Source: Eledone cirrhosa (Eukaryota). From it: 64,000 nt of DNA. Where the stretch lies: positions 350,672,001-350,736,000 of the forward strand of contig OZ024740.1 in the NCBI GenBank assembly GCA_964016885.1, read 5' to 3'. This document shows, in pieces, positions 852 through 63,519 of the stretch (its first letter is position 1; every line of letters starts with the position of its first letter). A program made the translations under genes and the position numbers. The notes under the pieces are model-generated. The model had not been told where the DNA came from. It saw only the letters and a program-made list of their open reading frames with translations, and did no database searches.

Positions 852-1114
852 AATAATAATAATGCTTTCTTTATTAATCACAAGGGTTTACATAAAGTAG
901 ACATTAAGGACAGTACAGCAAAATACAGGACGGTACAAATGGGCATTTCTGCGTGTAAAAAATAAAAACAGAGGATGCAACAAAAAAATAACAATGAAAA
1001 ATTCCCCAATACAGGGGAGACTTCCGAGGGACATTCGTGGAGAAAGCCCATTAAAAAGCCACAGTGACCCTGACCACCAGGGCAACTGCCCTCTCCCTGT
1101 TTTCCACCTTTAAT

Positions 1115-4100
1115 TTACAGATACATACTCATAATAGGCCCATTCACTCGGGCCATTCTTGCCTCTCTCACCCATCTTTCAACAAAATGCTGGGAAGAGA
1201 GCACTTCCTTCTCTACCCTGATTTTCCTTTTCAAATGAAATTTGAAAAGGTTAATCAGGGCATCACCGAAGAGGTAAGTGCTCGTCTCCAGCCCTTTCTA
1301 ACGTGTCCACCATACTATCTCTTTCGCCATGGCCACCAGACAGATAAAAACAGCCTGCCCTTCCCGGCTAAAGGAAGAGGGCGGGGCAATCCTCACGATG
1401 GAATCAGCTGATAGCTGGAACCGTCCTACACGTGACAGCAGGTGTTCGATATAAACCCACTAGTCAGCAATGCTCGGACGCTGGACGAGTGCGTGCAGGA
1501 CGGTTTCGTCGCCCTACGCGCATCTCGGACATGCGCGGCTGACGGCACCTCCATGACTATAAAGTTTATCGCGAACTGGCAAAGCTCCTCCGTAGCACTG
1601 CCAGGCCAGGGATTTCAGGAAGTTGTCCATAGGCCCCGGTCCGAAAGTTCTTCCGAAGAGATTGGCTAGTTGATTTTCGTCGACGCCTAGAGTTTCCCCT
1701 GAAACATTCCAGTATCCAAGCGCTTCCTCTCGGTCTTCGCTTACCCAGGACTGCATCTCCGTCAAGGAGACGAGCTGGGGAAAGACGCGTCTAGCAAACG
1801 GCGACCACACCTGATCATCGTCGAGGAAGAGGTGGACATGTCGTAGCCTGAGCGCGTGTCTGCGCATCATCAGCCACGGCCTGCCCAGACCTCAACGTAG
1901 CGGCTGTTGACAGCAGATGGACCGCCTGACCATCGGAGCGCGTCCCTTCCACAAAAAGCGAAAGAGCAAACGCTCTAGCGCAGTCAGGCGAGGCTTAGGA
2001 GAAGGTACGACGGTCAGGCGGTAGCAGATGACAGACGCGATGTACGCGTTAGCCACCTCCGCTCGACCTTTCAGGGATAGCTTCCTCTCTGCCCATTTCT
2101 GGGTGAGAGAAGCCACCCTGCTCGTCACCTCGTCCCAGTTTTGTCCGTCTGGAGGTCCGGACCGAACCAGACCCCTAGCAATTTAACCGGTCCGTCCGTC
2201 CAGCGTCCGACGACGCTGTTGGACGGCATGGACCTGCCTCTCCGAGCTGCAGGCCCACTGACTTTTCCTGGTTGATCATTGCTCCTGTCACCGCTTCGTA
2301 TTCTCTTAGTGTAGTGCCGATCGCCTCGATGTGTTTGGCGTTCGACACCATTACGGTGACACCGTCCGCATATGCTGACACAGATCTTCCGCATCCTAGT
2401 TCGCGCGGAACCCCCCTCAACGTCTCCAGTTTGTGCAGTTATGGCTCGAGAGTCAATACGTACAAGAGCGACGAGAGGGGGCATCCTTGGCGGATCGAGC
2501 GCATGATGCTGAACGGTTCCGAAAGGTGACCGTTCACTCTCACCACAGAGCAGATGTCGCTGTGCATGGTCGCGATCCAGCTGCTCAAGACGGGCCCAAA
2601 CCCAGCCGCCCTCAGGACTGTCGCTAAGTAACGATGGTCGACCCTATCGAAAGCTTTCGACTGATCTAAATTGATCAAGGAGCCACCCAAGCCCGGTTAC
2701 CTAGCTACCCCCTCCACGATGTATCGCATGAGGTGGAGGTTGTCCATGATGGATCTATCAGGAATGGCGCATGTCTGCGCCTCTCCCACCAGACGATCAG
2801 CGACAAGCGCCAACCTCTTTGCTAGAACCTTGGCGAAAATCTTGAACTCTGTGTTTAGCAGAGTTATGGTCCTGAAATTATCCCCCTTGTTATCCCCCTT
2901 GTTCGGATCCTTTCTCAGCAGTGCCACCGCTCCTCGGCTCACAGGGCTGAGAATCCTCCCGTTCTGTTGCCAGTTGCAGTAGACGTCCGCCAAGCGGCCT
3001 CCGACCAAGTCTGGCATCTGTACGTAAAATTCGTAGGGCAAACCATCCAAACCAGGCGATTTACACCTTGTGCTTCAAGTCATTGCCTCCCGTACTTCAG
3101 CGGCTGTTATCGGCTTTTCGCAACACTCCGCCTCAGTGGCAGAGAGCCGCGGCTGTCCGTCGAGGTAGACACTAACGTCCAATCCTCGATACGGCCCACC
3201 GCAGCCCCCGAAAAGCTGAGCGAAGTGTCGCTGAAAAGCTTCACACATTTGCCCGGGATCGAGTAGCATGCGCCCGTCGTGGTCCACCAATACCGGATCG
3301 TGATTTTGTTGCCTCGACGTGCCTCCGCCACTCGGGCCCATTGAACGGCTTTCGTCCCCTCGTGTCTGAGAGCACGCACCCTAGCTCTGACAACGCAGCC
3401 TTCGTGCTTTCCATTGAAGAATTGGTCAAGGGCCAATTTCGACGCAAGTACGTCGGTCGCGATGCCTTTGCTAAGCGCCTTGTCTAATTTTCTAACTAGT
3501 TCTCCCTCTGCTCTATTTTTCTCTATAGCTAAAGTCTTACTAAACCTAATGGACTCTATTCTAATCGCTCTTTTCAGAGCAAACCACCACTTGTTGTTGA
3601 CGATGGCCCCCGTCAACGCCCGCTTAACTAGTTCGCTAATCCGGTCTCTGCAGGCCTTGCGCGCTGGTAAGGACGCGTTTAGCTTCCAGTAGCCGGGTCC
3701 TCGTCTATGAAGCCTATCTAAATCAAGCACACAGATCACGAACTTGTGGTCCGTGTAGCTGACTATCTTGAATTGTGGACAGCCTATGCTAGACCTATCT
3801 ATTTCCCTACAAAATACTCTATCTAGATATGATCTGGATGACCCGATGTGGTTTGTCCAAGTTCACATTGGCACATTCGGGAAATCCAATCGGTACCTGT
3901 CAGACAGTTCAAAACGCCTGAGCAGGTTGGTGGGGCTCTTGCACCCTCCATCCCTATCCGATAATCCCACACAGTCCCAGCGTGCATCTAAGATCCCGTT
4001 CCAGTCGCCCACTAACACTAAAGAGTAGGACGTTCCAAGAAAGGTCTCCAGGCGCCGGAAGAAATCAGGCCTGTTCGTGCCGGGGCATAGACGGCCACTA

Positions 4101-10456: not shown

Positions 10457-13400
10457 GAATGCTATGGTTGACAGAGGCTCGGCTCTGTAAGGTATTGTAA
10501 ATTTTGACCACTATAACAATTGTAAATTGTTTAAAACTTTAACCAACTTGTAGACAAAAACACCCTCCTCCTCGTGAGAGGGGTCTTTCTGCCCGTTATT
10601 TGGCCCTTCGGGGTTAAATAATCGCTTATTGGGGTTTTGTGCCCAATATTTATTTTAAACAAAAAAAACAACATGGCTACGAAAAAGAATTTTCATAGGT
10701 CACTCCCACTCATTCCGTCTTCCTCTTCCTCAATCGTCACTACAGCAGAGAGAAGATTGTCTCTCTCGGTCCCTTCTTTAAATGTGTCTCTCTCCCTCCC
10801 TTCTCTTTCGCAAGCGACGACAGAAAAGAAAAATCTCGTGCAAAGCGTGCAAGATTTCTCCACGACGACGACGACAACGACGAAAAAGGTGTGCGGGAAA
10901 TACGAAAACCCATTTCATTCGTCTGACGTCAGGAATAATAGCAGTAGCAGCCGTAATAACAACAACAACAGTTACAATGAAAACAACAGTAGCAGCCGCA
11001 ACAGCATCAGCAGCAGCATAAACAACAACAGCATTAGCAGCAGCAACAACAACCACAGCAACAGCGGTGGCGGCAGTAGTCGTAGTACCTGCAGCAACAA
11101 CAAAAGTAACAGCAGCTCTGACAACAACAACAACAAAAACAACAGCAGCAAAGAAAAACCAATCTCGTTTGCAGGTATCGCAAAGAACCTGGAAACCATC
11201 CTCATAACAAATGAGGAATTAGAGGAAGCGAAGAAGATGGTGACAAAAACTGGATACCGAGCAATCTGTAAGGCAGCCGAAAAATTTGTCGAAACCCAAC
11301 AGCACTGTACGGTCACGTACTGTACAGTAAGTACAAAATCCCGTAGGGTTGAAAGAGCCACAGAGGCTCAAATACAGAAAGCTTTGGGGTCTGTGTGGCA
11401 GCGAAAAACGCACATCACCCGAGGCAAGAAATATGCCACCGTAGACGTACTTTTTGTCACACCCCAGGAGGCAAAGGCTCAATCCTTAGTGACCCTAAGG
11501 AGCGAGGAAATGGTGTTGGTAGCCTCCTATTGCGGGCAAAAAATTGTGAGGGTCAAACTGAACCACGTCCCCCCCCCCCCGGGATGGCCCCTTCTTAGCT
11601 GGTCGCGCCTGTCCTCGTCGGAATCGAGGACAAAACAACTGTACTGCAAGTACAGAAAAAAGTAAGAGAAGATTGGGTCGGTACCACCATTGAGATGTTA
11701 ATTCAAACCAACCAGGAGTGCATCGAAGCTATCCCGGATGTGATAGACTTCGATAACGGCACTCAACTGCCCATAATTGTTGAGGGCAAACGCCCGAAAT
11801 GCTTTCGCTGTGGATCGAAGACTCACCTCAGGGCCTTCTGCAACGAGAAGACCCTGAGAAAGGAGAACCCCCCCCTCCTTCCGAAACCGGCTCCACGGCT
11901 ACCAGCAACAGGACAAGCGCAAACAGGAACGATAGGTCCGTCGCACCCATACCCACGCCACGGAAATCAAAAACAGCAGCAGCAGTGGAAGTATTAACAA
12001 CAACAACAGCAATACCAAATGCAGCTGCAACAGAGACTCCAGTGCAAACATCACCAACAACAATAAGTGAAAGAGTGGAGCTGGTACCCCTCCCCGACCT
12101 CACAGAATCAGACATGGAGTGTGAGGTGGGAGAGGAATGGCAAAAGCTCGTAAAAAGGCACAAACGCAGAAGCAGCGCATCGTCGCCTTCGAAAAGGGAG
12201 GAAAGAAATGAAAAAAGGGCTACTGCAAAGAGACTCACAGCAGCAACACCAACACCATCACCACCCACACTAGCACCACCATCATCACCGGCGACAACCC
12301 CACCGCCAACAACACCTTCAACACTACCACCACAAGCACCAACATCGCAAGCACAACAACAAAACACACACACCCAGCAACAACGACAAGAAAATAGCAG
12401 AACCACACCCCACCCCCAGAAAAACAAATGCACGGCAATAAATACACACAACAAGAAACTAATGACTTACATAAGTGAACACACAGACATTTCACAGCAC
12501 AACTACATAATACCAGCACCAATCAAAACGCCAACTAACATAAGACTGCTAAAAATAGCACAGAAACATTAAAACGAAATTCCCCAACGCAGTTGGTGAT
12601 TTCAGAGACCTAGGAGGAACACTCAACCACAATTCAAGATAGTCAGCTACACGGACCACAAATTCGTGATCTGTGTGCTTGACTTAGATAGGCTTCATAG
12701 ACGAGGACCCGGCTACTGGAAGCTAAACGCGTCCTTACCAGCGCGCAAAACCTACAGAGACCGGATTAGCGAACTAGTTAAGCGGGCGTTGACGGGGGCC
12801 ATCGTCAACAACAAGTGGAGGTTTGCTCTGAAAACAGAGATTAGAATAGAATCGATTAGGTTTAGTAAGGCTTTAGCAATAGAGAAAAATAGAGCAGAGG
12901 GAGAACTAGTTAGAAAATTAGACGAGGCGCTTAGGAAAGGCATTGCGACCGACGTGCTTGCGGCGAAATTGGCCCTTGACCAATTCTTCAATGCAAAGCA
13001 CGAAGGCTGCGTTGTCAGAGCAAGGGTGCGTGCTCTCAGACACGAGGGGACGAAAGCCGTTCATTGGACCCGAGTGGTGGAGGCGCGTCGTGGCAACAAA
13101 GCCACGATCCGGTCTTTGGTGGACCACGACGAGCGCATGCTACTCGATCCCGGGCAAATGTGTGAAGCTTTTCAGCGACACTTCGCTCAGCTGTTCGGGG
13201 GCAGCGGTGGGCCGGGTCGAGGGATGGACTTTAGTGTCTATCACGACGGACTGCTGCGGCTCTCGGCCACTGAGGCGAAGTGTTGCGAAAAGCCGATAAC
13301 AGCCGCTGAAGTAAGGGAGGCAATGACTGGCTGCACAAGGGGTAAATCGCCTGGTTTGTATGGTCTGCCCTATGAACTTTACGTACAGATACCAGACTTG

Positions 13401-15596
13401 TTCGGAGGCCTCTTGGCGGACGTCTACTGCAACTGGCAACAGAACGGGAGAATTCCGAGTTCTGTGAGCCGAGGAGCGGTGGCACTGCTGAGACAGGATC
13501 CGAACAAGGGGGATAACATAGATAATTTCCGGCCCATAACTCTGCTAAACACAGAGTTCAAGATTTTGGCGAAGGTGCTAGCAAAGAGGTTGGCGCTTGT
13601 CGTTGGTGGTCTGGTGGGAGAGGCGCAGACATGCGCCATTCCCGACAGATCCATCCACGACAACCTCCACCTCATGCGATACATCGTAGAGAGGGTAGCT
13701 AGGGAACCGGGCACGGGTGGGTCCTTGATCAATTTAGATCAGTCGAAAGTTTTCGATAGGGTCGACCATCGTTACCTAGCGGCTGTCCTGAGGGCGGCTG
13801 GCTTTGGGCCCGTCTTCAGAGGCTGGATCGCTGCCATGCACAGCGACATCTGCTCTGTGGTGAGAGTGAACGGTCACCTGTCGGAACCGTTCAGCATCAT
13901 GCGCTCGATCCGCCAAGGATGCCACCTCTCGTCCCTCTTGTACGTATTGACTCTCGAGCCATTACTGCACAAACTGGAGACGTTGAGGGGGGTTCCGCGC
14001 GAACTAGGATGCGGAAGATCCGTGTCAGCATATGCAGACGATCTCACCGTAGTGGTGTCGAACGCCAAACACATCGAGGCGATCGGCACTACACTAAGAG
14101 AATACGAAGCGGTGACAGGAGCAATGATCAACCAGGAAAAGTCAGTGGGCCTGCAGCTCGGCACCTGGAGAGGCAGGTCCATGCCGTCCAACAGCATCGT
14201 CGGACGCTGGACGGACGGACCGGTTAGACAAAAACTGGGACGAGGTGACGAGCAGGGTGGCTTCTCTCACCCAGAAATGGGCGGAGAGGAAGCTATCCCT
14301 GAAAGGTCGAGCAGAGGTGGCTAACGCGTACATCGCGTCTGTCATCTGCTACCGCCTGACCATCGTACCTTGTCCTAAGCCTCGCCTGACTGCGCTGGCG
14401 CTTTTTGTGGAAGGGACGCGCTCCGATGGTCAGGCGGTCCATCTGTTGTCAACACCCACTACGTGGAGGGCTGGGAATGCCGTGGCTGATGATGCGCAGG
14501 CACGCGCTCAGGCTACTACATCTCCACCTCTTCCTCGACGGTCTCCAGGTGTGGTCGCCGTTTGCTAGACACGTATTTCCCCAGCTCGTTTCCTTGACGG
14601 AGCTGCAGTCCTAGGTCAAGCGAAGACCGAGAGGGAGCGCCTGGAGACTGGAATGTCTTCAGACGCTCACAGCCCTCGACCAATCAGGCAATGTGATCGG
14701 TGGAAACTCCACCTCGGCGTTCTATAGAGGATTAGTGGAGGGGAAGAGCGACGACGTACTTGGGGAAACTCTAGGCGTCGACGAAAATCAACTAGCCAAT
14801 CTCTTCCGAAGAACTTTCGGGCCAGGGCCTATGGACAACTTCCAGAAATCTCTGGCCTGGCAGTGCTACCGAGGAGCCTTGCCAGTTCGGGATAAACTCT
14901 ACAGGCATGGAGGTGCCGTCAGCCGGGCATGTCCGAGATGCGCACAGGGCGACGAAACCGTCCTGCACGCACTCGTCCAGTGTCCGAAAATTGCTGACTT
15001 GTGGGTTTATGTCGAACACCTGCTGTCGTGTGTAGGACGGATCCGGCTATCATCTGAGTCCATCGTGAGGATTGCCCCGCCCTCTTCCTTTACCTGGGAA
15101 GGGCAGGCAGTTTTTATCTGTCTGATGGCCATGGCGAAAGAGATAGTATGGTGGACACGTTTGAAAGGGCTGAAGACGAGCACTTACCTCTTCGGTGATA
15201 CCATGATTGACTTTTTCAAATTTCATTTGAAAAGGAAAATCAGAGTAGAAAGGGAAGTGCTCTCTTCCCAGCATTTTGTTGAAATATGGGTGAGAGAAGC
15301 AAGAATGGCCCGAGTGAATGGGCCTACTCTGAGTATATATCTGTAAATTAAAGGTGGAAAACTGGGAGAGGACACTTGCCTTGGTGGTCAGGGTCACTGT
15401 GGCCTTTTTACTGGGCTTTCTCCACAAATGTCCCTCCGAAGTCTCCCCCCTATTGGGGAATTTTTCATTGTTATTTTTTTGTTACATCCTCTGTTTTTGT
15501 TTTTTACACGCAGAAATGCCCATTTGTACCGTACTGTATTGTCCTGCACTGTCCTTAATGTCTACTTTATGTAAACCCTTGTGGTTAATAAAGAAA

Positions 15597-21185: not shown

Positions 21186-22650
21186 TTGTTATACTTGGGG
21201 AGGGTCATATTGTTGTAATAATATTGCCAGAAATAAAAACAGAACACACGTACTGTTTGGTTGGTTTTCGCTTCTGTATCTTTTATAACTCCGCACTTAA
21301 TTCATTCGGTCCTCAATGTTTACCATTAACTGACCAACGGTCAAAAATACAGATATAATATAGATATAAACACATATATATAGTCTAAAAAGTTCTTTCG
21401 TTGCACATCTGCAATATCATCGGTGGTGCTATTATGTTCCTCCTGTTGTATTATTGTATATCTACGCCATTTTTATTTTATCTGTTTATTTACTTATTTA
21501 TTTTTGTCTTGTTCTCTGCGCATGCGTTTGCGTGTGTGTATAGTGTTTGGTGTGTGTTCGCGTTTGGGTGACTGTGTTTTGGTTATTGTATTCTATCTTA
21601 GTTTACTCATGTGCGTTTATATGCGTTTGTTGTTATTGTGCTTGTGTATATATTTATTTATTCATTTATTTATTTATATTTCTCTTGGTATTCCATTCAT
21701 TTTTTCTGTTTAGCTTTCGCCTTCTAAGTTCTATTTCACTTGCCTCTCTGATTTGCCTATCTGTTGGGTCAATTCTATGTTTAGATATTATTTTAATTTC
21801 TATGTTGTCTATGTTACCGACATGTTGTTGTCTGGTGTGTTCGTATAGGACCGAACCATTTTTCCGCCCTTTTAGTTCCCCCCAATGTTGGTCTATCCTT
21901 TCACCTATGCTACGGGCTGTCTCGCCTATGTATGTTGTTGTCATGTTTCTGCAAGTACCCTCTGTACATCTTATGCTATAGACTACGTTTCAAGTTTTAC
22001 AGTTTATCTGGGGGTTTACTTTACATATAACACATTTCCTATTAGTACAGTTGGTTTTCTTAAAAGGGTATGTTTTGCTGATCAGGAATTTTATGGTAGT
22101 TTCTGGCTTTTCTACCACTTTAATCTTTAAGTGGGTCTTTCTCAGGGTCCTTTTACACTGGTTAGCTAATTTCCCTCTGGAGGTAGCGTCCACGAACATT
22201 ACACTCTGGTATCTCTGGTTGTCGTACCATGAGGTGGCTTTCCCTATCTTATGTTTAGTCCTATCTAAGCTATTCCATGATTTGCTCCTGTATAATGGGC
22301 AAATCCCTTTCATGTCCAGTTCTATGAGTGTCTTATACTTCTCCGTGGCTTCTTTGTATACTCTGATTCTGTCTCTTTGGTTGTAGCCAGAGAACTGCAT
22401 GCGGTTGATGAAGTGTTGGATGTGTCTTTTCATTTCTGTTGGGTCGTACATGCGGGACACGTTCTTCATCACTCGTACCAAGTCTGCGATCAGAATATTA
22501 AACTTAGCACTACTGGACATTGCTGAGTTTTTGAGTATCTGGTATTTGGAGGCCATGGATTTAGTGTAGTGCGAGTGGATAATTTGGGCTCTCTCGTCTA
22601 TAGTGTTAATCCAGAGTTCCATGTCTAATACAGGTAGTCTACTGTTAGGG
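21186..22650 (-). mobile_element. Penelope-like element, 5'-truncated (RT thumb, Cys motif, C-terminal GIY-YIG, pLTR with HHR at about 21385-21430)
   Basis: LPVLDMELW..HYTKSMAS..; CxxxxCxxC; VVYSIRC..YIGETARSIGERIDQH; pLTR homologous to 62660-62915. Confidence 0.82.
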
Positions 22651-23523
22651 TGTTAATCCAGTGTTCTAAGTGGGTTGCTAACCCACTTAGAATACTGGAT
22701 TAACCCCTTTACTTTCCCCAGAGGAGAGATATGATCTGGAAATATCAGGATAAATTAAGGTAAAAGACTAATTGTCAGCGCTATCTTTTACAAATATATT
22801 TATATTCTATATCCAAACCTGCATTGTTCTGGCCTTCTAACTTCAAACGTTTATACTTCACTACACAATGCTTCAAGTAAACTACCAATTCCTTATATTT
22901 ATATATATATATATATACTTCCTTCTTGTATTATTATCTCCTAGCCTTAATGATTAATTGATTAATGTAATTAGACAATTCTATTGATTTGTTAATTGTT
23001 TATGTTTGTTTCATAACATCTAGTTGAGAACTTTTATTCGGTTTGTGTAAAGGATATAAATCCTTTGTTCAAATTTTGAATTTCATCGCCAAGACCGGGG
23101 GTTACCTCCCTTCGGATAAACCACGTGACTACTGGCGGTGTTTACTGCTAGTTTTTACAACCGGTGGCGGCAGAACGAAAACTTGTTGACGAAGTAAATT
23201 CCACTGTTCTGCCTTCCAAAACCAATAACATGCAGGCCCCTGCAAATGGATTTTATTGATTTCGGATTTACAGAAACCTAGCGGAGATATTATATATCTC
23301 CACGATGGTGCAGGTATGTGAACATTTTCCTGAGTCGGTTCTTTTCGTTGTTCTGGTCCTAAGCGGCTCGCTTATCGGTCGTTGTCTTTAATTTGCATAG
23401 CTATCTAAACGTAATGTATAAACTCTAAAGTAAAATTCCTTATTGAGTGCTTTAGCTGTATATTTCGACTGCATTCGTTAGCTTGGCTGCAACCAGAACT
23501 TCGATTATGCTGTACTTCCTTCT

Positions 23524-24146: not shown

Positions 24147-24725
24147 ATGAATAAAGTTAGTCCTTCATCAGTGATCTTCCAACCTTCATTGGTATTTCAT
24201 CGCTTTAAAGACCATATACCTCCGGTTGGTGCGAGCAACAGCTAAAGAAAGTCGTTGGGACACGCAAATAAGGGGAACGAGCGAGACTGTAAATAAACAA
24301 AGGTGGCAATGCAACGAAAAGTTAGGAAGAAAGAGTCAAGTCCCAGATTTCCATGAATATAAATTCGGTGAAGTTGTGAACGAAAGAGAATAAAGACCAT
24401 CAAACCTAGTCGAAATGTGAGCAAGGAAGGAATTCCGCACAGGTCTAACGGGAGGAAGGAGGAGTCTAGTCCCAGAATTCGGTGAACATAAGTTCTGTGA
24501 AATCGTAGACAACAGAGAAAAAAGGAACAACCAGCTTGGTCAAGCGTGCGCGAGAAAAGAATTACGCACAGGTCAAACGGGAGGAAGTAGGAGAGGTAGT
24601 AGCAGAGCGTGAGTGAGTGAAGGGTGAGGAAGAGGCTAACAGAGAGAGTGACTGTTAGAGAGGGTAAAGATACAGAGAAAGAGGAAGCAGTAAGAACGAA
24701 ATAGACGGGTCACAGCGGAGGAAAA
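24147..24725 (-). mobile_element. Retrozyme-like non-coding repeat, subfamily 1 (copy B)
   Basis: About 90% similar (by eye) to 25035-25615; flanked by TA-rich tracts. Confidence 0.85.
24160..24261 (-). ncRNA. Rearranged kink-turn hammerhead-like ribozyme (copy B)
   Basis: Same fold as 25499-25600; third K-turn pair is A.G. Confidence 0.75.
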
Positions 24726-24910: not shown

Positions 24911-25655
24911 GATCTTTAAAGCGATGAAATACCAATGATGGTTGGAAGATCACTGATGAAGGACTAACTTTATTCATATGTAACCCATTAGCAACCACGC
25001 AGCACGTTTATTCTCATATTTACACATATTTATTCCCCCGCTATGACCCGTCTATTTCGTTCTTACTGCTTCCTCTATCTCTGTATTTTTACCCTCTCTA
25101 ACAGTCACTCTCTCTGTTAGCCTCTTTCTCACCCTTCACTCACTCACTCTCTGTTACTACCTCTCCTCCTCCTCCTTCTTCCCGTTTGACCTGTGCGTAA
25201 TTCTTTTCTTTCGCACCCTTGGTCTGGCAGGTCGCTTTTTTTCTCTCTCTCGTCTACGATTTCACAGAACTTACGTTCACCGAATTCACTGACTAGATCC
25301 CTTCTTCCTCCCGTTAGACCTGTACGGAATTCCTTCCTTGCTCACATTCCAACCAGGTTTGATGGTCTTTAATCTCTCTCGTTCACGATTTCACCGAACT
25401 TATATTCATGGAAATTTGGGACTTGACTCCTGCATCCTCATTATTCGTTGCTTCACCATCTTTGTTTGTTTACACTCTCGTGTCCCCTTTATTTACGTGT
25501 CCCAACGACTTTTTTTAGCCGTTGCTCGCACCAACCGGAGGTATATGGTCTTTAAAGCGATGAAATACCAATGATGGTTGGAAGATCACTGATGAAGGAC
25601 TAACTTTATTCATATGTAACCCATTAGCAACCACGCAGCACGATTATTCTCATAT
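24911..25655 (+). mobile_element. Retrozyme-like non-coding repeat, subfamily 1; 636-nt unit with ~110-nt terminal direct repeat
   Basis: 24911-25020 recurs at 25547-25656; no meaningful ORF. Confidence 0.88.
25499..25600 (+). ncRNA. Rearranged (non-circularly permuted) kink-turn hammerhead-like ribozyme (copy A); predicted cut after 25545
   Basis: GGTA-TA^TGGTCTT..GCGA-T-GAAA-TACC..AAGATCA-CTGATGA-A-GGAC; helices covary with subfamily 2. Confidence 0.78.
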
Positions 25656-25740
25656 TTATATATATATATATGTAATATGTATATATGTATATTTGCTATC
25701 ACCACTTGTGTAGAAGAAAGTTAAATAACAGCCTACCAAT

Positions 25741-26835
<1,095 letters not shown>

Positions 26836-27282: not shown

Positions 27283-27794
27283 GCAACCCTACCAAGGTTT
27301 CTTGGTGAGGAGGGTGACTTTGGACATCCTGCAGGACTAAAAACAAAACCTGTCAAAGGGCAAAGAAGCTATTAAGAGTCAATGGCCATCCAAAATCACC
27401 GGGAGAGATGTCCCCTTAGCCTTTGTCAAGGCAGAATTCTAGGAGAAGGAAAACTCTGATATAGTACCTGCAACCCAGATGGTATCCAATGATTTTTTGG
27501 TAAATATCATCTTGGTCAAGAGAGTGGGACTGGCTTTGTACAGTGCCTTTGCTCACTGTAAAAGCTTCACGGCACAGGCATTGCTTTATATCTGGAGATC
27601 TCTCTGCACTTGTCATCACAGGGTACAATGGGCCCAGCACTATGTGTCAGCAATTGTCACAAGTCTAGTGTTTGTACCAGAGTTTTCAAATCGCTGGCTG
27701 GACTAAAAAGTCACACTCGTTCAGCGCATCGGTAGGAGTTCTCCTACATGGATATAAAGTAGTGGTCGTACTCGAAAACGAGTTGGCAGCCACC

Positions 27795-27875
<81 letters not shown>

Positions 27876-29558: not shown

Positions 29559-29862
29559 GCACCCCCAGAGTGAACCTGTCTATAGAATTCTTTCTGCCTT
29601 TGCTATTCTAAATATTGTTTTTAAAGAATTCCCTTTTCTTTAAACCCATCAACCAATGGCTTCCCCCCATCCCAATCACCACCCTCTCCTACCACCAGAA
29701 AAGATATAACTACCACCATATTACTTGGACAGCCAGCTTCTGATGATTTCTCCTGAATGAAACAATTCTAGTACTGTAGAAGATTTTCTATATTAAATAT
29801 TTATACTCTGCTCTGTATTGAGTACCTTACTTTCTGTGGTTACCCCCGATTGAACCCGGGAT
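29557..29862 (+). mobile_element. Solo PLE pLTR family with HHR-like core (CTGATGA..GAAAC at about 29740); other copies at 53803-54016 (-) and 60890-61168 (+)
   Basis: Three homologous copies next to (TA)n. Confidence 0.7.
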
Positions 29863-33121: not shown

Positions 33122-35330
33122 TTATTCTTTGTTGCTGTGTGAACGAATCTGAGCACTTGTAGAAGGGGAAATTTTAAAGTTGGGTAGTGTCATTCCTGCG
33201 CAGTTCGCAATATGGCTGCTCAAGGGGATTTTTCTTGTGTTAGCGTCCCGGATTTGTTGGCGGTGGATGGTCATTCTTTTGCGTAATGAGGTTCCCGTCT
33301 GTCCTATGTAGTTGTGTTTGCACCCACCGCAAGTTATTGCGTAAATCAAGTTCTCCGAGTTGCAGGTGAAATTGTTTTTTACTGTAAATGTTTGGCCATC
33401 TTTAAATGTATATTTGTGTCCTTCTGTGAGGTAGAGGCACGTTCCACAGTTTGTTCTACCACATTTGGTAACTGTAGGGTTGAGGATTGGTTTGGGTATA
33501 TTTGGTCCTTTGAGAATGCGTTTTAGTGATATGGGTTGTCTTTTACTTTTAAGGATCTTGTGTGTTTCAAGAATAGACTTCATTTTTACATCTTTAAGTA
33601 GGATGGGGAGGTTTTTGTGTAGGTGATCAAACATTTCGGTATTTCTGGGGTTGAAAGTGGGTACATATGGCAGGGTGTTGAGTGTGGTTTTCTATTTTGG
33701 ATTGTTAAGTTGATGGGGATTTAGGTGTTTTGCCCTGTCTATTCCATTGTTGATTATTTCAAGTGGAAAGGCTCTTAAGATAAGGGTGTCTTTTAGTTCC
33801 TTTAGTCTTTGCTCCCGTTTAGGTGGATCTGATACTATGGTACATATACGTTTGGCCAAATTGTAAGGAATGTTAAGTTTTGTATGTTTTGGGTGACTTG
33901 ATGTGAAAAAGAGGTATTGCTTGAAATCTGTGGGTTTATAGAATATATCTGTATCTAATTTCCCGTCTATTACAGAGATGAGAATATCCAAGAAGGCTAA
34001 TTCCTTGGGATTGGATTCCATTGTGAATTGTATGTTATTATCTATGTTGTTTATCATGTTTTTAAACATAGTAAGTGAGTTCATGTCTTCTTGCCATAGG
34101 ATAAAGCAGTCGTCTAGATATCTTTTCCAATTGGCTTTGAGGTGTGTGTGGAAAGAGTCTCCAAATAAGAGAAGGGACTGACTGTATATTTGTTGTTCAT
34201 GGAATCCCATGACTAGGTTGGCATATGTGGGTGCTACTTTCGTGCCCATTGCAGTACCTGATACTTGTCTGTATGTTGGACCATTGAATGTGAAGTAGTT
34301 ATTTTGTAGGATAAAGCGGAGTCCGTCAGTGATAAAATCTTTGTTGATGCGTGTCGGTATTTCTGATGGGTGTGTGTTAAGCCAGTATTGGACTGCTGTT
34401 ATTCCATAGTTGTGGGGTATGTTTGTGTAGAGGTTTATTACGTCAAAGGAGACAAGAATTGTATTTGCACTTACTGTTTTAGGGAGGTGCTTCAGCATGT
34501 CAAGGTCATCTCGTATGTCGCTCTGTATATGTTGTAGAAAGGGTTTCAGTAGGATGTCCAGAAAGTTGCTAAGTCTGTGGGTTTCACATGTAGGGCCTGC
34601 TATAATTGGCCTGAGTTTTAGGTCTTCTGGTGGTGTTAGTTCAATGTAATTGTTGGTTGAGGTCTCACATGCATCGTTTATGGGTTTACATTTGTGGAGT
34701 TTCGGTAAGCCGTAAAAAGAGCTTGTATTGCATTTGAAGTGGCTTATATAGTTAAACTCTTTTGTGGTTAAGCTGTTGCGGTATTTATTCAGTAAGGTCA
34801 AAAGGTTCCCATTGTTTTGGTGTATTTGTAGTTTTCTGTTTTTTCATAGTATGTGTTGTTTTCTAAAATGTTAAGTGCGAGGGTCCTATAGTAGTCCGTA
34901 TTCATAATGACAACAGTACTGCCTTTATCGGCTTCTTTGATAGTTATCTCAGGGTTGTTTCTAAGTGTGAATAATTCTTCCCATTCGTGTGTAGATAGGT
35001 TTGATTTCGTGTGTTTATTTGTAATTTTTTCATAGGGAAAGTTGGTGATGTGTTCGCAGTACGTGTCCAGTGCTTTATTTCTTCCCTTTTGTGGGCAGAA
35101 ATTACTTTTATTTCTAACCAGTGATTCGTCTTCAGTGTTGGTGTCGTTGTGGAAGAATTCCGTTAGTCGCAGCTTTCGGCAGTATTCCATGATGTCATCC
35201 TTCATTTCGGGGAAGTTTGGTTTACGTGGTGTAGGTGTAAATTTCAGGCCCTTACTTAAAATGTTGATTTGTGTGTTGGTTAGAGGTGTCTTTGAGAGGT
35301 TGATTATTTTTGGTTTCTCCTGAGGGGGGG
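33122..35330 (-). pseudogene. PLE RT/GIY-YIG ORF, frameshifted
   Basis: ORFs 34798-35205, 33692-34801, 33122-33634. Confidence 0.9.
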
Positions 35331-35890
35331 GGGGGCCATCGAGTATCCTGGTATTTCAGGCTTTTCCCTAAAAAAGGAATGTAGTTTTGTGTGTGATTAT
35401 ATTTTGTTGGTCTGTTGCGTGTGGGTCTGTAGCTTGTTGTTTCATGAGGGTGAAAGGGTATAAAAAATGACCGGTTTCGATGGGTCTGCAAAAGCCATCT
35501 TTTCAAATGTTGATTAATATTAAGAAAATTAATAATAATAAGAGTTAAAATTTGAGATTTGAAAATTCAAGTATAAAATTCAGTGTGGGATCTCATAGTA
35601 GTTTTCATCTTGGTAGCAGCAAGTTGACTGCTGTGTGCCTTTCTGGTAGCGAATGAGGAGTTATTTGGGGGAGTGGGTTATTTTATAAAGGTCAGATTTA
35701 GCAAATCTGACCTTTATAAAATAACCCACTCCCCCAAATAACTCCTCATTCGCTACCAGAAAGGCACACAGCAGTCAACTTGCTGCTACCAAGATGAAAA
35801 CTACTATGAGATCCCACACTGAATTTTATACTTGAATTTTCAAATCTCAAATTTTAACTCTTATTATTATTAATTTTCTTAATATTAATC

Positions 35891-37125: not shown

Positions 37126-37409
37126 GTAACACAACAGTTAGTTCACCATACCGAGAACAATTGTTTCACATTGCGGATCTTCAGCTCGGACTGACAATGG
37201 TTATACGGAACAGAAAAGGGAGAAACAACCGTGTGAAAGCGCACGCTCAGAAACGGTCACTTCTCCCAAGCGATGAAAATCCACGGTCGAAAGTTGTAAG
37301 GGGGGTAACTGCGAATGTCCGGAATAAATTGTTTGAGTTGATTAGAATATTAGAATGTTGATGTTATTTAATCCGGCGCTTTGTAATTATGCAAGATATG
37401 TTTCAGACG

Positions 37410-52538: not shown

Positions 52539-53120
52539 ACAAACGTGCTGCGGGGTTGCCAATGGATTACATATGAATAAAGTTAGTCCTTCATCAGTGA
52601 TCTTCCAACCATCATTGGTATTTCATCGCTTTATAGACCATATACCTCCGTTTGGTGCGAGCAACAGCTAAAAAAAGTCGTTGGGAGACGTAAATAAAGG
52701 GGACACGAGTGTAAACAAACAAAAATGGTGAAGCAACGAAAAGTGAGGAAGAAGGAGTCAAGTCCCAAATTTCTATGAATTTAAATTCGGTGAAATCGTG
52801 AACGAGAGAGAATAAAGACCATCAAACCTGGTTGAAATGAGAGCAAGGAAGGAATTTCGCACAGGTCTAACGGGAGGAAGAAGGGGTCTAGTCTGTGAAT
52901 TCGGTAAACATAAGTTCTGTGAAATCGTAGACGAGAGAGAGAAAAAATGCCGACCGGCCTGGCCAAGCGTGCGAAAGAAAAGAATTACGCACAGGTCAAA
53001 CGGGAAGAAGGAGGAGGAGGAGAGGTAGTAACAGAGAATGAGTGAGCGAGTGAAGGGTGAGGAAGAGGCTAACAGAGAGAGTGACTGTTAGAGAGGGTAA
53101 AGATACAGAAAAAGAGGAAG
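52533..53120 (-). mobile_element. Retrozyme-like repeat subfamily 1 (copy D) with rearranged HHR at 52586-52687
   Basis: Homologous to 25070-25655; core intact, three helix mismatches. Confidence 0.85.
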
Positions 53121-57061: not shown

Positions 57062-57067
<6 letters not shown>

Positions 57068-59750
57068 CGGCCGCCCCATCGTCTCCGCTTGCAACTGCCC
57101 CACCGAACTCATCTCCGCCTTTCTCGACGCCCTCCTCGCCCCCCTTGTCACCACCTTCCCCTCCACATCTCCGACACCAACCACGCCCTGCGCCTTTTCG
57201 ACTCCTTCACCTACCCACGCGGCCCACAGCCCTTCCTCTTCACCCTAGACATCAAGTCCCTCTATACAGTCATCCCCCACGCCGACGGCCTTCGCGCCCT
57301 CAAACACTACCTCGACCTTCGCCCCTCACCCATTCCCTCCACCCCCACCCTCCTTCGCCTCGCCGAGCTGGTCCTCACCCTGAATTGTTTCTCCTTCTCG
57401 GGTGAGTTTTACCAACAGGTCACGGGGGTAGCCATGGGTACAAGAATGGGCCCGAACTATGCCAACCTTTTTGTTGGCCATGTTGAGGCCCAAATCTTTG
57501 CCCAGTACACCGGCCCCACGCCCGAACTGTACGGTCGTTACATTGACGATTGTATCGGAGCCACGACCCTCACCCGAGAACAGCTCGACTCCTCTCTCTC
57601 CTTCTTCTGCTCCTTCCACCCCTCCCTCCACTTCACCACCTCTATCTCCACCACCCACGTCCACTTCTTAGACATCTCCGTCGCCTTCGACCCCTCCCAC
57701 CACTCCCACCACTCCCTCGTCACCTCCGCCTTCTTCAAACCCACCGACTCCCACTCTTACCTCGACTTCACCTCTTCCCACCCCACCCACACTAAACACT
57801 CCATTCCCTACTCCCAACTTCTCAGGATCCGCCGCCTCTGTAGCCGTGATGCTGACTTTGAGTCCCAGGCCCTTTCCCTAGTCAGCCATTTCATCCGCAG
57901 AGGTTACCCCCCTCTCTCGTCCACACCGCTCTCACCCGCGCCCGTGCTGTCCCCCGCTCCACCACCCTCACCCCACGCCACCGCACACCCACCCACCGTC
58001 TCCCCTTCCCCATCACCTACCACCCCTCCACCTTACCCCTCCACCGCACCATCCGCCGCCTCTTCCGACGCCTCCAGTCCGACCCCTCCACCTCCCACAT
58101 CTTCCCAACCCCACCACTCCCCTCCTTCAAACGCGCACGCAATCTCCGCACCTTCCTCGTCCACAGCTCCCTACCCCCCAACCCACGCTCTGTTTACCCC
58201 CCCCCGGTTCCTTTCCCTGTTCTAGGCCCCGCTGCAACACCTGTCCCCACATCACCAACACCACCACCTTCCAGGGTCACAACGGCCACTCTCTCTCTGT
58301 CCGGCATGCCTTCCGCTGCACCTCCTCCAACTTATGTCGGACAGACGGGACGTCGCCTGGCGGACCGAGTCACGGAGCACCTCCGGGATATTCGTCTCGG
58401 GGGCAGTTCCCCCATCGCCCGCCACTTTGGTGGCCCTGGACATTCCGCACGCCATCTCACAGTCTGTGGCCTACTCCAGTGCCACGGAACCCCCGCCAAT
58501 CGCCTTACGGTCGAACAACGAACTATCTTCATCTTACAGACCCACACTCCCCCCGGCCTGAACTCCCCACCCTTATTCCTTTAGCCTTCGACCGCCCCCC
58601 TCCCCCCACACTTATCTCCCACTAACACCACTAACACACCCCTCCTTTTCACCGCCCACCACACAACTAACAATACTAACACCTCCACTCCACCCCTCAT
58701 CTGACCACCCTTCCCCAACTAACATACTAACATCCCTTCCCTCCCCTCTTCCCCCCTCCTTATCACACGCACACACCCACCGGCACATATATACACGCGC
58801 TCACACTAAACACACACCCTACTACTACCACTAACCCTCACCCCCACACCTCTCACCTCCACACCTCCATCCCACCACCCCGCAACTAACCTCACTAACA
58901 CCCCCTAACCCCAAGCACACGAACACACGCACCCACTTACACCACCCACCCCACACGCAACTAACATCACTAACACCCCCCAACCCAACGCACACGTACC
59001 CACACACCCTCGTACACCACCAACTCTACACACCCTACCACCACTAACCCCCACTCACACCTGCATTCAACCCCTCCCCACCTCCCGTATACTAACACCC
59101 ACTAACACCTCTTCATCAAACTACACACACACCAGTACTCCACACTCCCTCCATAGAACCACGCACACCCTTCTCTCCCCCCTCCACCCACACCCTCGCT
59201 CCACACTCACTCATCCCACTAACACCCCTACTAATACACACACACACACCCTCCTCACTCCAAATTTCACACCTACCCATCCTCGCCCCTTTACCATTCC
59301 ACCGACTGCTGCTATGCCCTCTGACCACCTCCCAGCACAAACAGACCACAGCACTCCCACTGCTGACCACTTCCTGTTGCGCGCGCACCCCACATCTCTC
59401 CTCTTCCGACCATCGCTTCATGGAATACCCACACGCAGAAATTGACCAACAACCAATCCACTAAACATCTTCGGAATTTACCAACTTTTCAACCATACTC
59501 TTACGTAATCACCTATATAACTCACCCACACACACACCCCAAAAATTTTTTTTCTCCACACGCCACCTACACCCACAACACGCTTAAACCCCACACACAC
59601 GTGCTTTCCACCACATATCTACACCCTCAGCCTCCTGATTCCTCTCTCCCCACCCCTCTATCCACACACGCACAGACACTCCGACCCCCCCTCACACACA
59701 CCTCTTCCTGAACATGCAACCCTGTTCTTCCCCAACCCTTACTTTCTCAT

Positions 59751-61197: not shown

Positions 61198-61853
61198 GAA
61201 AAAATGGGGAGAAGAATACTGCTGGTTGCACATGGATAACATGTAATAAAATAAGTCCCTCATCAGTGATTTGCCGACGATCATAGATATTTCATTGCAT
61301 TAAAAATCATATACCTCACGTCGGTGCAATAATAACTAAATTAAGTTATTAGGACAATTAAAACGCGTAAAGCGAGTGAAACAAGATAACAACAAAGAGG
61401 ATAGCTAACCGTAGAAGGAAGGGAACAAGCTTCATAGTTATTCTGTTAGCATAAGCTAGGTGAATATATGAGCGCTTAGAAAAAAGACCTTTCAGGAGCG
61501 AATTCAAATGTGAGAAAGAGAGAAAATGATTTCGTCGCGAACGGGGTGAAGTGAGAAGAGGAGAAACAGTGAGTGAGTGGGTGGAAGTGTGAGGAAGAGT
61601 TAACTGACATGACAGAGGGGGCGAAAGAAAGTAGGAGAAACAGAGAGAGCGAGGGAGCAGTAAGAGAGAGAGAGAGATAGAGAAAAAAAACAGAATCGCA
61701 GTAGGTAAATATATGTGAAAAAATGGGGAGAAGAATACTGCTGGTTGCACATGGATAACATGTAATAAAATAAGTCCCTCATCAGTGATTTGCCGACGAT
61801 CATAGATATTTCATTGCATTAAAAATCATATACCTCACGTCGGTGCAATAATA
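61198..61853 (-). mobile_element. Retrozyme-like repeat subfamily 2; 519-nt unit with ~137-nt identical direct repeats
   Basis: 61198-61334 recurs at 61717-61853; (TA)n on both sides. Confidence 0.88.
61255..61355 (-). ncRNA. Rearranged kink-turn hammerhead-like ribozyme, subfamily 2 (partial second copy 61774-61853)
   Basis: GTCC-TAATAACT/AGTTATTA-TTGCA-CCGACG-T-GA-GGTA-TA^TGATTT-ttaa-TGCAA-T-GAAA-TATC-TAT-GA-T-CGTCGG-c-AAATCA-CTGATGA-G-GGAC. Confidence 0.78.
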
Positions 61854-62957: not shown

Positions 62958-63519
62958 TGGAGAATAGGATTGGCTGTGTAGTTGCTAGTAAGGTAGCTTA
63001 AAATGGATTGAGAATAAGAAGAAAGCAAGAACGGGGGGTGGGGGGTCCTCATCAGTTGTCTACTGGGGGTCTCGGATATTTCCACGCTTTAAAGACAAGA
63101 TATCTACCACCCAGAGCGTTCAATAACTGGGTAAGTTATTGGAAAAACGGTGGAGGGAGGAGGGGAAAATAGAAGGGAAAAGGGAAGAAAAGAGAAAACA
63201 GCCAAAAAAACAACAAACTGAGCAAACCTTAAGGTAAGAAAATCTTTCGCCCACACGCTCTTGAACTTAAGTTCTGTTATCGGTATATATATATATATAT
63301 ATATATATAGGAAAAAGTATGACCCCGAAGGCAGAGCTCTGAACTAAATTAGAATTTTTAGCCTGGCTAAAAATTCTAATTTAGTCCAGAAATAGCCATC
63401 GAAACGGCTTGAGCTCTGCCACCGGGGTCATACTTTTTCCTATTTCCCACTCTACTACCCTAAGTATTGAGTATTTTGGTGCGTTATGATCCATCTGGTT
63501 CCTTACCAAAATTCCTTTG

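Follow-up and report, generated by a model that had tools for sequence, protein, structure and literature searches.

Positions 61255-61355 of the window studied here, a 64,000-nt stretch of the Eledone cirrhosa assembly GCA_964016885.1 (contig OZ024740.1, positions 350,672,001 to 350,736,000), carry a hammerhead-type motif that reads on the minus strand. The first-pass annotation described it as a diverged second subfamily of a rearranged fold and took its preserved helices as a sign of selection on RNA structure. The locus raises the question of whether such selection has acted, and of what the structure would do for the element that carries it. An Rfam search returned no ribozyme hit in the window, and no hammerhead at E-values up to 1. 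Folded alone, 61255-61355 is no better than its shuffles on either strand (z of -1.6 and -1.8), so the evidence for a structure has to be comparative. Searched with a covariance model, the window contains six copies that are nearly complete and one that is half a copy; three of these, or close relatives, belonged to the training set of the model (Table 1).

The 5' part of the motif comprises, in order, a junction helix strand, a hairpin, a stem II strand, a single A, an outer-helix strand and GA. It is followed by block S (stem III, U16.1, H17 and stem I), a 5-nt linker and block G, which runs from stem II through N11.1 and GAAA to stem III and leads into a 3-nt bulge, GA and an outer-helix strand. 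Block C (stem I and CUGAUGA), one base and a junction helix strand complete the 3' part. Comparison among copies identifies, at the level of sequence, the core nucleotides, stems I to III, an outer helix linking stems I and II, and a hairpin-bearing junction helix by which the two ends are closed. It likewise identifies a K-turn consensus where stem III meets the outer helix and, around the motif, tandem units, 5'-truncated first copies, inverted copies and (TA)n flanks. The outer helix corresponds both to the stem I-II "interaction" helix of type-SGC hammerheads and to the NC helix of a K-turn. From the hammerhead consensus, the predicted cut lies between 61310 and 61309. The truncated copy upstream in the same insertion retains blocks S, G and C, the stem II strand and the outer helix, and is without the 5' strand of the junction helix and half of the hairpin.

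Table 1. Copies of the repeat in the window, and the predicted ribozyme of the minus-strand subfamily-2 copy element by element.
Feature	Position	Strand	Remark
Whole insertion: 5'-truncated copy, then full 519-nt unit, (TA)n tracts on both sides	61199..61850	-	
Subfamily-2 rearranged hammerhead	61255..61355	-	Covariance model 113 bits; copy itself in training set
3' tail of about 56 nt, ribozyme to (TA)n	61199..61254	-	Commonest distance among copies 55-65 nt
5'-truncated second copy, 519 nt from subfamily-2 motif	61774..61850	-	
Subfamily-1 ribozyme	25499..25600	+	
Subfamily-1 ribozyme, inverted partner copy	24160..24261	-	
Subfamily-1 3' half, truncated 1-3 nt behind predicted cut site	24911..24982	+	
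Subfamily-1 ribozyme with private pair-breaking changes	52586..52687	-	
Third subfamily of the window, cut triplet AUC, decayed	63041..63148	-	Covariance model 86.6 bits
Junction helix 5' strand GTCC, partner 61255-61258 (GGAC)	61352..61355	-	68/76 cells paired (19 subfamilies)
Junction hairpin, 8 bp, 6-nt loop	61330..61351	-	Subfamily alignment, RNAalifold
Stem II strand upstream of cut site, partner 61295-61298 (pseudoknot)	61326..61329	-	74/76 cells paired
Outer helix 5' strand, partner 61274-61279	61319..61324	-	5/6 pairs with two-sided change
Predicted K-turn non-bulged strand (3n, 2n, 1n)	61316..61318	-	
Predicted K-turn bulged strand (3-nt bulge, GA, 3b)	61280..61285	-	
Block S: stem III strand GGTA, U16.1 (61311), H17 = A (61310)	61309..61315	-	
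Stem I 5' strand, partner 61267-61272 (pseudoknot)	61304..61309	-	97% of cells paired; 5/6 pairs two-sided
Block G: stem II strand, N11.1 (61294), GAAA (61290-61293), stem III strand	61286..61298	-	
Block C: stem I strand, CTGATGA (61260-61266), following base 61259 = candidate N10.1	61259..61272	-	

Measured against the subfamily-1 copy at 25499, the motif at 61255-61355 shows 25 differences, 18 in stems, seven in loops and none in the core, in line with the annotated constancy of the latter. Each of the 11 pairs touched by these differences is intact in subfamily 2, seven through two-sided and four through one-sided changes, one of which turns an A.C mismatch into a pair. The helix changes reported by the first-pass annotation are borne out for the outer K-turn helix (CCAACC:GGTTGG to CCGACG:CGTCGG), for stem II (TCGC:GCGA to TTGC(A):(T)GCAA, with the gain of one pair), for stem III of subfamily 2 (GGTA:TATC with a G.U pair), for its junction hairpin (TAATAACT:AGTTATTA) and for pair 10.1-11.1 (A-U to G.U). 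Stem I of subfamily 2 does read TGATTT:AAATCA, but its seventh, outermost pair is lost, T-A having become T.C. Similarly, GGTATA and GTCC:GGAC are invariant between these two subfamilies, but covary in others. The element body had been called much more diverged than the ribozyme; this holds for indels (204 gap columns) but hardly for substitutions, as the body is 70% identical over aligned columns, compared with 76% for the ribozyme (77/101, one gap) and 72% for the tail. Ribozyme and body identities being so close, the case for selection lies in the pattern of change and not in a higher identity.

We therefore rely on the comparison of many subfamilies. Of the 266 matches that could be placed, 198 are full-length and entered the alignment, and 187 of them fall into 19 subfamilies. 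The rows left out (36 unrelated or too diverged, 32 truncated or with an odd 5' half, seven unassigned, and one four-copy cluster that is another repeat) include the oldest subfamilies, which are thus absent from the 19. Older, more diverged subfamilies with GAAAC and a varied stem III occur at L085 and L270-L285 (model E-values of 1e-6 to 0.4), and were kept out of the covariation counts. According to the first-pass annotation, further subfamilies that break the pairings or lose the core would speak against selection. The majority sequences of the 19 form a pair in 589 of 627 pair cells, and none of the 11 core positions has changed. The outer pair of the junction helix alternates between G-C, U-A and A-U, and stem II shows the types U-A/A-U/G-C and C-G/U-A.

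Changes were counted once per spanning-tree edge, between observed subfamilies only. Of 91 pair changes, 55 keep the pair and 38 are two-sided, against a mean of 9.2 two-sided changes and a maximum of 20 when changes were placed at random (20,000 draws); 32 of the 38 two-sided changes are pair-keeping. Private changes in 128 young copies behave differently: the pair is kept in 23 of 74, and only six of 74 are two-sided. An unpaired state is involved in 36 of the 91 between-subfamily changes, mostly in older subfamilies of 3-7 decayed copies, where the breaks concentrate in the junction helix and hairpin and partly reflect register shifts and the small number of decayed copies. When each subfamily is represented by one real copy, 91.8% of 646 cells are paired and 24 of 34 pairs show two-sided change. 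None of 500 shuffles reaches these values (91.8%/24 pairs), in a control that ignores subfamily relatedness and with two subfamilies misaligned at the 5' end, and slid controls stay at or below 47.5%. RNAalifold by itself recovers the hairpin, the outer helix and stem III. A scan of metagenomes for the same pattern gave 118 stretches, the scorable ones reaching at most 13 of 20 expected pairs. The repeated change of both pair partners together between subfamilies makes it likely that the fold is under selection. Thus, the first-pass proposal of selection on RNA structure is supported by compensatory changes over 19 subfamilies, as opposed to mostly pair-breaking private mutations. The fold is well supported as a selected structure, and catalysis is its predicted function.

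The hammerhead core (C3 U4 G5 A6 N7 G8 A9, G12 A13 A14 A15.1, U16.1, H17) is present in all 19 subfamilies, although most copies were gathered with a pattern that fixes GAAA, GA and CTGATGA, so that this conservation is partly set by the search. Two of the core positions lie outside the main pattern and behave as expected: U16.1 is invariant in 19/19, and H17 is A in 12 subfamilies, C in seven and never G. A search that left the core free yielded 11,854 matches, compared with 16 for the control, and 99 of the 100 matches listed are elements. By eye, no core-less subfamily is found among these 99 copies; 12 of them have C at position 7, which is free, and 11 show other core changes, of which one type alone was seen twice. 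Stems I and III, which flank the core, are paired in 97% and 96% of cells, respectively, with covariation. The 4-bp stem II covaries as well, and its closing pair 10.1-11.1 is paired in 16/19 subfamilies and in 184/223 copies. Where 11.1 is A, this pair forms in no more than 17 of 44 copies and fails in 27. Part of the U-A type could be CpG decay of C.A, and a mismatch at 10.1-11.1 could slow catalysis. The sole subfamily with C at 11.1 is also the sole one in which a deletion puts G at 10.1, a coincidence that favors the pair.

Between stem III and the outer helix, the sequences conform to the K-turn consensus, with a 3-nt bulge, G1b.A1n and A2b.G2n (or U2n). G1b, A2b and A1n occur in 19/19 subfamilies, and 2n is G in 14 and U in five; G1b and A2b are part of the search pattern, A1n and 2n are outside it. 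At 2b-2n of kink-turns, A.U is a tolerated exception, and both G and U fold in Kt-23 (PMC2790904).

The motif is part of a non-coding repeat that is present about 20,000 times in the genome. The core pattern of its 3' half has 20,880 genome matches, compared with 54 for the reversed control. The best 40 of 2,673 candidate places are 96-100% identical, and many of them sit in tandem arrays headed by a truncated copy. The arrays repeat at periods of 445-706 nt, plus one of 257, the longest ATG frame of the units encodes 67-70 aa, and 39% of a unit is paired when folded as a circle. In the 519-nt unit, about 56 nt separate the motif from the 3' end. The repeat has 5'-truncated partial tandems, inverted copies, a microsatellite (TA)n target and a ribozyme-like motif near its 3' end, and by these sequence features it fits a non-autonomous Penelope-like (Naiad) derivative. 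The element is also present in contigs of sequencing runs from the coded organisms A, B and C (four contig sets, which are silent on expression). The subfamily-1 body contains a 129-nt internal duplication (window 24324-24593), which forms a satellite of about 17 copies at L453 14-2331. Another young non-coding family, about 600 nt in length (L192 1490-2110 and window 27283-27795), has 2,283 candidates that are 97-98% identical; it ends in (TACA)n and forms tandems.

Several other features were observed in the window. On the plus strand, an intronless and stop-free MAK16-like frame of 368 codons (25729-26832; Pfam L28e and Mak16), either a gene or a retrocopy, contains a long GAA-coded glutamate run and has its start some 140 nt downstream of the subfamily-1 ribozyme on that strand. 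Minimal hammerhead-like cores in canonical order (CTGANGA, short stem, GAAA) are located at 29740, 61048 and 62694 (+) and at 37184, 53845 and 60468 (-); all six belong to other Penelope-like families, and none is reported by Rfam. Frame fragments of Penelope-like reverse transcriptase (RT) and of GIY-YIG lie at 21993-22652 (-), 33125-35355 (-) and 57065-58222 (+), and LINE-like copies form a large inverted pair (1053-3778 and 12627-15408, 92-94% complementary).

Naiads are Penelope-like elements described with (TA)n insertion, partial tandems and inverted copies and without canonical hammerheads, eight of them having a "half core" (Craig et al. 2021, PMC8557442). Naiad_Ovul, one of the eight, is marked "HHR_half_core" and annotated "no pLTR" (PMC8557442). 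By eye, the 3' ends of Naiad_Ovul and of the preceding record, in the available records, show the scrambled order, the junction hairpin, the upstream stem II strand, the outer helix and the K-turn. Six further Naiad records have the S-G-C order without a readable K-turn, and in five of these the upstream stem II strand can be made out; the available Naiad_Omin consensus does not contain the scrambled fold (both by eye). N11.1 of Naiad_Ovul pairs with the upstream strand, whereas its candidate partner here is the base after CUGAUGA. The available text of Craig et al. 2021 (PMC8557442) contains no description of the scrambled fold at Naiad 3' ends.

Within the E. cirrhosa genome, no physical link between the repeat and a Naiad ORF was found. 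The 55 Naiad-like RT matches all lie in open frames of at most 236 aa, and the motif stands at the end of none of the 23 Naiad remnant loci and none of the 80 GIY-YIG loci. A motif taken from the Naiad_Ovul ribozyme has no match in this genome at up to two mismatches, and two model hits inside Naiad loci turned out to be independent truncated insertions in (TA)n. No RT remnant was attached to the older subfamilies among the matches listed. A Neptune-like ORF near a subfamily-3 copy was rejected as a partner: it carries a canonical minimal hammerhead of its own and was inserted separately. The stretch directly upstream of that subfamily-3 copy is an unrelated SINE-like repeat. In this Neptune-like family (30 copies examined), hammerheads are canonical and minimal, some related copies have open frames of up to about 900 aa, and no 3' tail shared with the units was found. 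Since the Naiad-like frames are all short and yet subfamily-2 copies are 96-100% identical, the young subfamilies may be moved by an undetected Naiad lineage or through cross-mobilization.

We also looked for a genomic footprint of cutting. L499 is a head-to-head pair in which both arms start at the predicted cut. A script placed 3/16 inverted junctions at the cut (p of about 0.05, with several junctions mis-scored); by eye, five arms at four loci begin there. Truncations of subfamily-2 copies fall within 5 nt of the cut in 4/36 cases, compared with 3/36 at another site of TA microhomology. The footprint is suggestive, but weak and not established. The (TA)n-junction test was set aside, since microhomology confounded it, as did the presence of TATATA inside full-length copies.

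Taken together, we consider it probable, at about 0.78, that the motif is a scrambled S-G-C hammerhead, kept by compensatory changes over 19 subfamilies, and that it self-cleaves a tandem transcript into unit-length RNAs copied by a Penelope-like protein. The repeat family would descend from the 3' end of a Naiad element. A tandem transcript of the non-coding Penelope-like repeat would be cut once per unit, after NUA or NUC (61310/61309), the K-turn bending stem III back so that its far end meets the outer helix. Two cuts 519 nt apart would release a monomer, possibly circularized as in non-LTR retrozymes. A Penelope-like protein may then reverse transcribe monomers into (TA)n sites, as has been proposed for non-LTR retrozymes (PMC7229834; bioRxiv 10.64898/2026.07.22.740005). 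Selection would act on a few spreading master copies, and most genomic copies would decay neutrally.

The selected fold might instead now be a protein-binding handle, recognized by the RT of the element or by an L7Ae-family protein, that cleaves poorly or not at all. The K-turn consensus is a known protein-binding motif, pair 10.1-11.1 is variable and the cut-site footprint is weak, all of which suits a handle; however, the 11 fixed catalytic positions, the variable position 7 and an H17 that is never G form the pattern that catalysis imposes, and we regard this alternative as unlikely. Dimeric folding is known for minimal hammerheads, and the units here occur in tandem, which is why a strand-swapped dimer across adjacent units, with a folded block order other than local S-G-C, was considered as the active form. 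It appears very improbable, because the junction helix, the hairpin and the K-turn-linked outer helix close a single 101-nt unit locally and the available Naiad_Ovul consensus ("no pLTR") has one such motif at its end. That the covariation merely reflects shared ancestry or DNA-level repair between inverted arms, with no RNA selection, is barely credible: the subfamilies are related and their cells not independent, the single-sequence fold is not significant and copies were collected through the core pattern, but changes counted once per spanning-tree edge come to four times the null, the interleaved pseudoknot helices also covary, private mutations show the opposite pattern and metagenome matches to the same pattern lack the helices.

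A broader reading of the scrambled, self-cleaving hammerhead is more tentative, and we place it somewhat below even odds: an active non-circular-permutation hammerhead of unpublished topology, opened in block C and folded by a K-turn, would be the hidden signature ribozyme of Naiads. Here it would have survived its Naiad parent in some 20,000 retrozyme-like copies, which a different Penelope-like clade would mobilize, and the K-turn may make it host-protein-assisted. This reading would overturn the view of Naiads as hammerhead-less, on which the argument that hammerheads may merely parasitize Penelope-like elements is based. The non-circularly permuted hammerheads known so far stem from environmental RNA and DNA contigs whose source organisms are unknown, with one case from bacteria that is doubtful. 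An animal example, genomic and present in high copy number, would provide 19 covarying subfamilies as ready constructs and natural compensatory mutants. The scrambled fold breaks the assumption that block C is uninterruptible, and it implies that descriptor searches miss a ribozyme class. The K-turn also offers an answer to how stem III could reach the stem I-II helix, a geometry left open in the available text of Eckert et al. In the literature covered, which excludes most subscription papers and bioRxiv supplements, we found no account of a hammerhead that has a non-circular permutation or a K-turn and comes from an animal genome or from a retroelement; the available text of an octopus repeat annotation (PMC13282606) does not mention ribozymes.

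Among known hammerheads, the block order S-G-C sets this motif apart from types I, II and III (CGS, GSC or SCG). S-G-C is a non-circular permutation with validated ribozymes (Eckert et al. 2023, PMC10085705), which cleave at 0.007-0.19 per min and whose RNAs are from metatranscriptomes, none being reported there from genomes of known organisms (PMC10085705). With type SGC the motif shares its block order, a complete core, a short linker that leads from stem I into stem II, and an outer helix on the other sides of these two stems (PMC10085705). The validated SGC ribozyme HRIMA-1 has the same segment of stem II strand, A and outer helix strand, and like the motif here has an extra base after CUGAUGA (PMC10085705). 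In HRIMA-1, however, that segment follows CUGAUGA and the extra base, whereas here it is located 5' of the cut site. Also unlike type SGC, the opening in the chain comes directly behind CUGAUGA, a hairpin-bearing junction helix closes it, and both strands of stem III enter the outer helix via a K-turn consensus; the terms "k-turn" and "kink" have no hits in the available supplement of PMC10085705. Block C is interrupted, in that the stem II strand is not directly 3' of CUGAUGA but upstream of block S, and we therefore file the motif as a variant of type SGC and not as a member. With known kink-turns, including Kt-23, it shares the 3-nt bulge and the G.A and A.G (or A.U) pairs between two helices (PMC2790904); here the predicted K-turn, read as a sequence consensus alone, sits on stem III of a predicted ribozyme. 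With Naiads, the repeat shares (TA)n targets, 5'-truncated partial tandems and inverted copies (PMC8557442), but unlike them it encodes no RT or endonuclease. Finally, non-LTR retrozymes consist of non-coding units in tandem, each with one hammerhead, and are regarded as non-autonomous derivatives of Penelope-like elements (PMC7229834; bioRxiv 10.64898/2026.07.22.740005). The repeat described here has the same non-coding tandem units with one predicted hammerhead each; non-LTR retrozymes, however, carry type I hammerheads and are described as highly self-paired circles, whereas the present units of 445-706 nt carry the S-G-C order and are only 39% paired in a circular fold.
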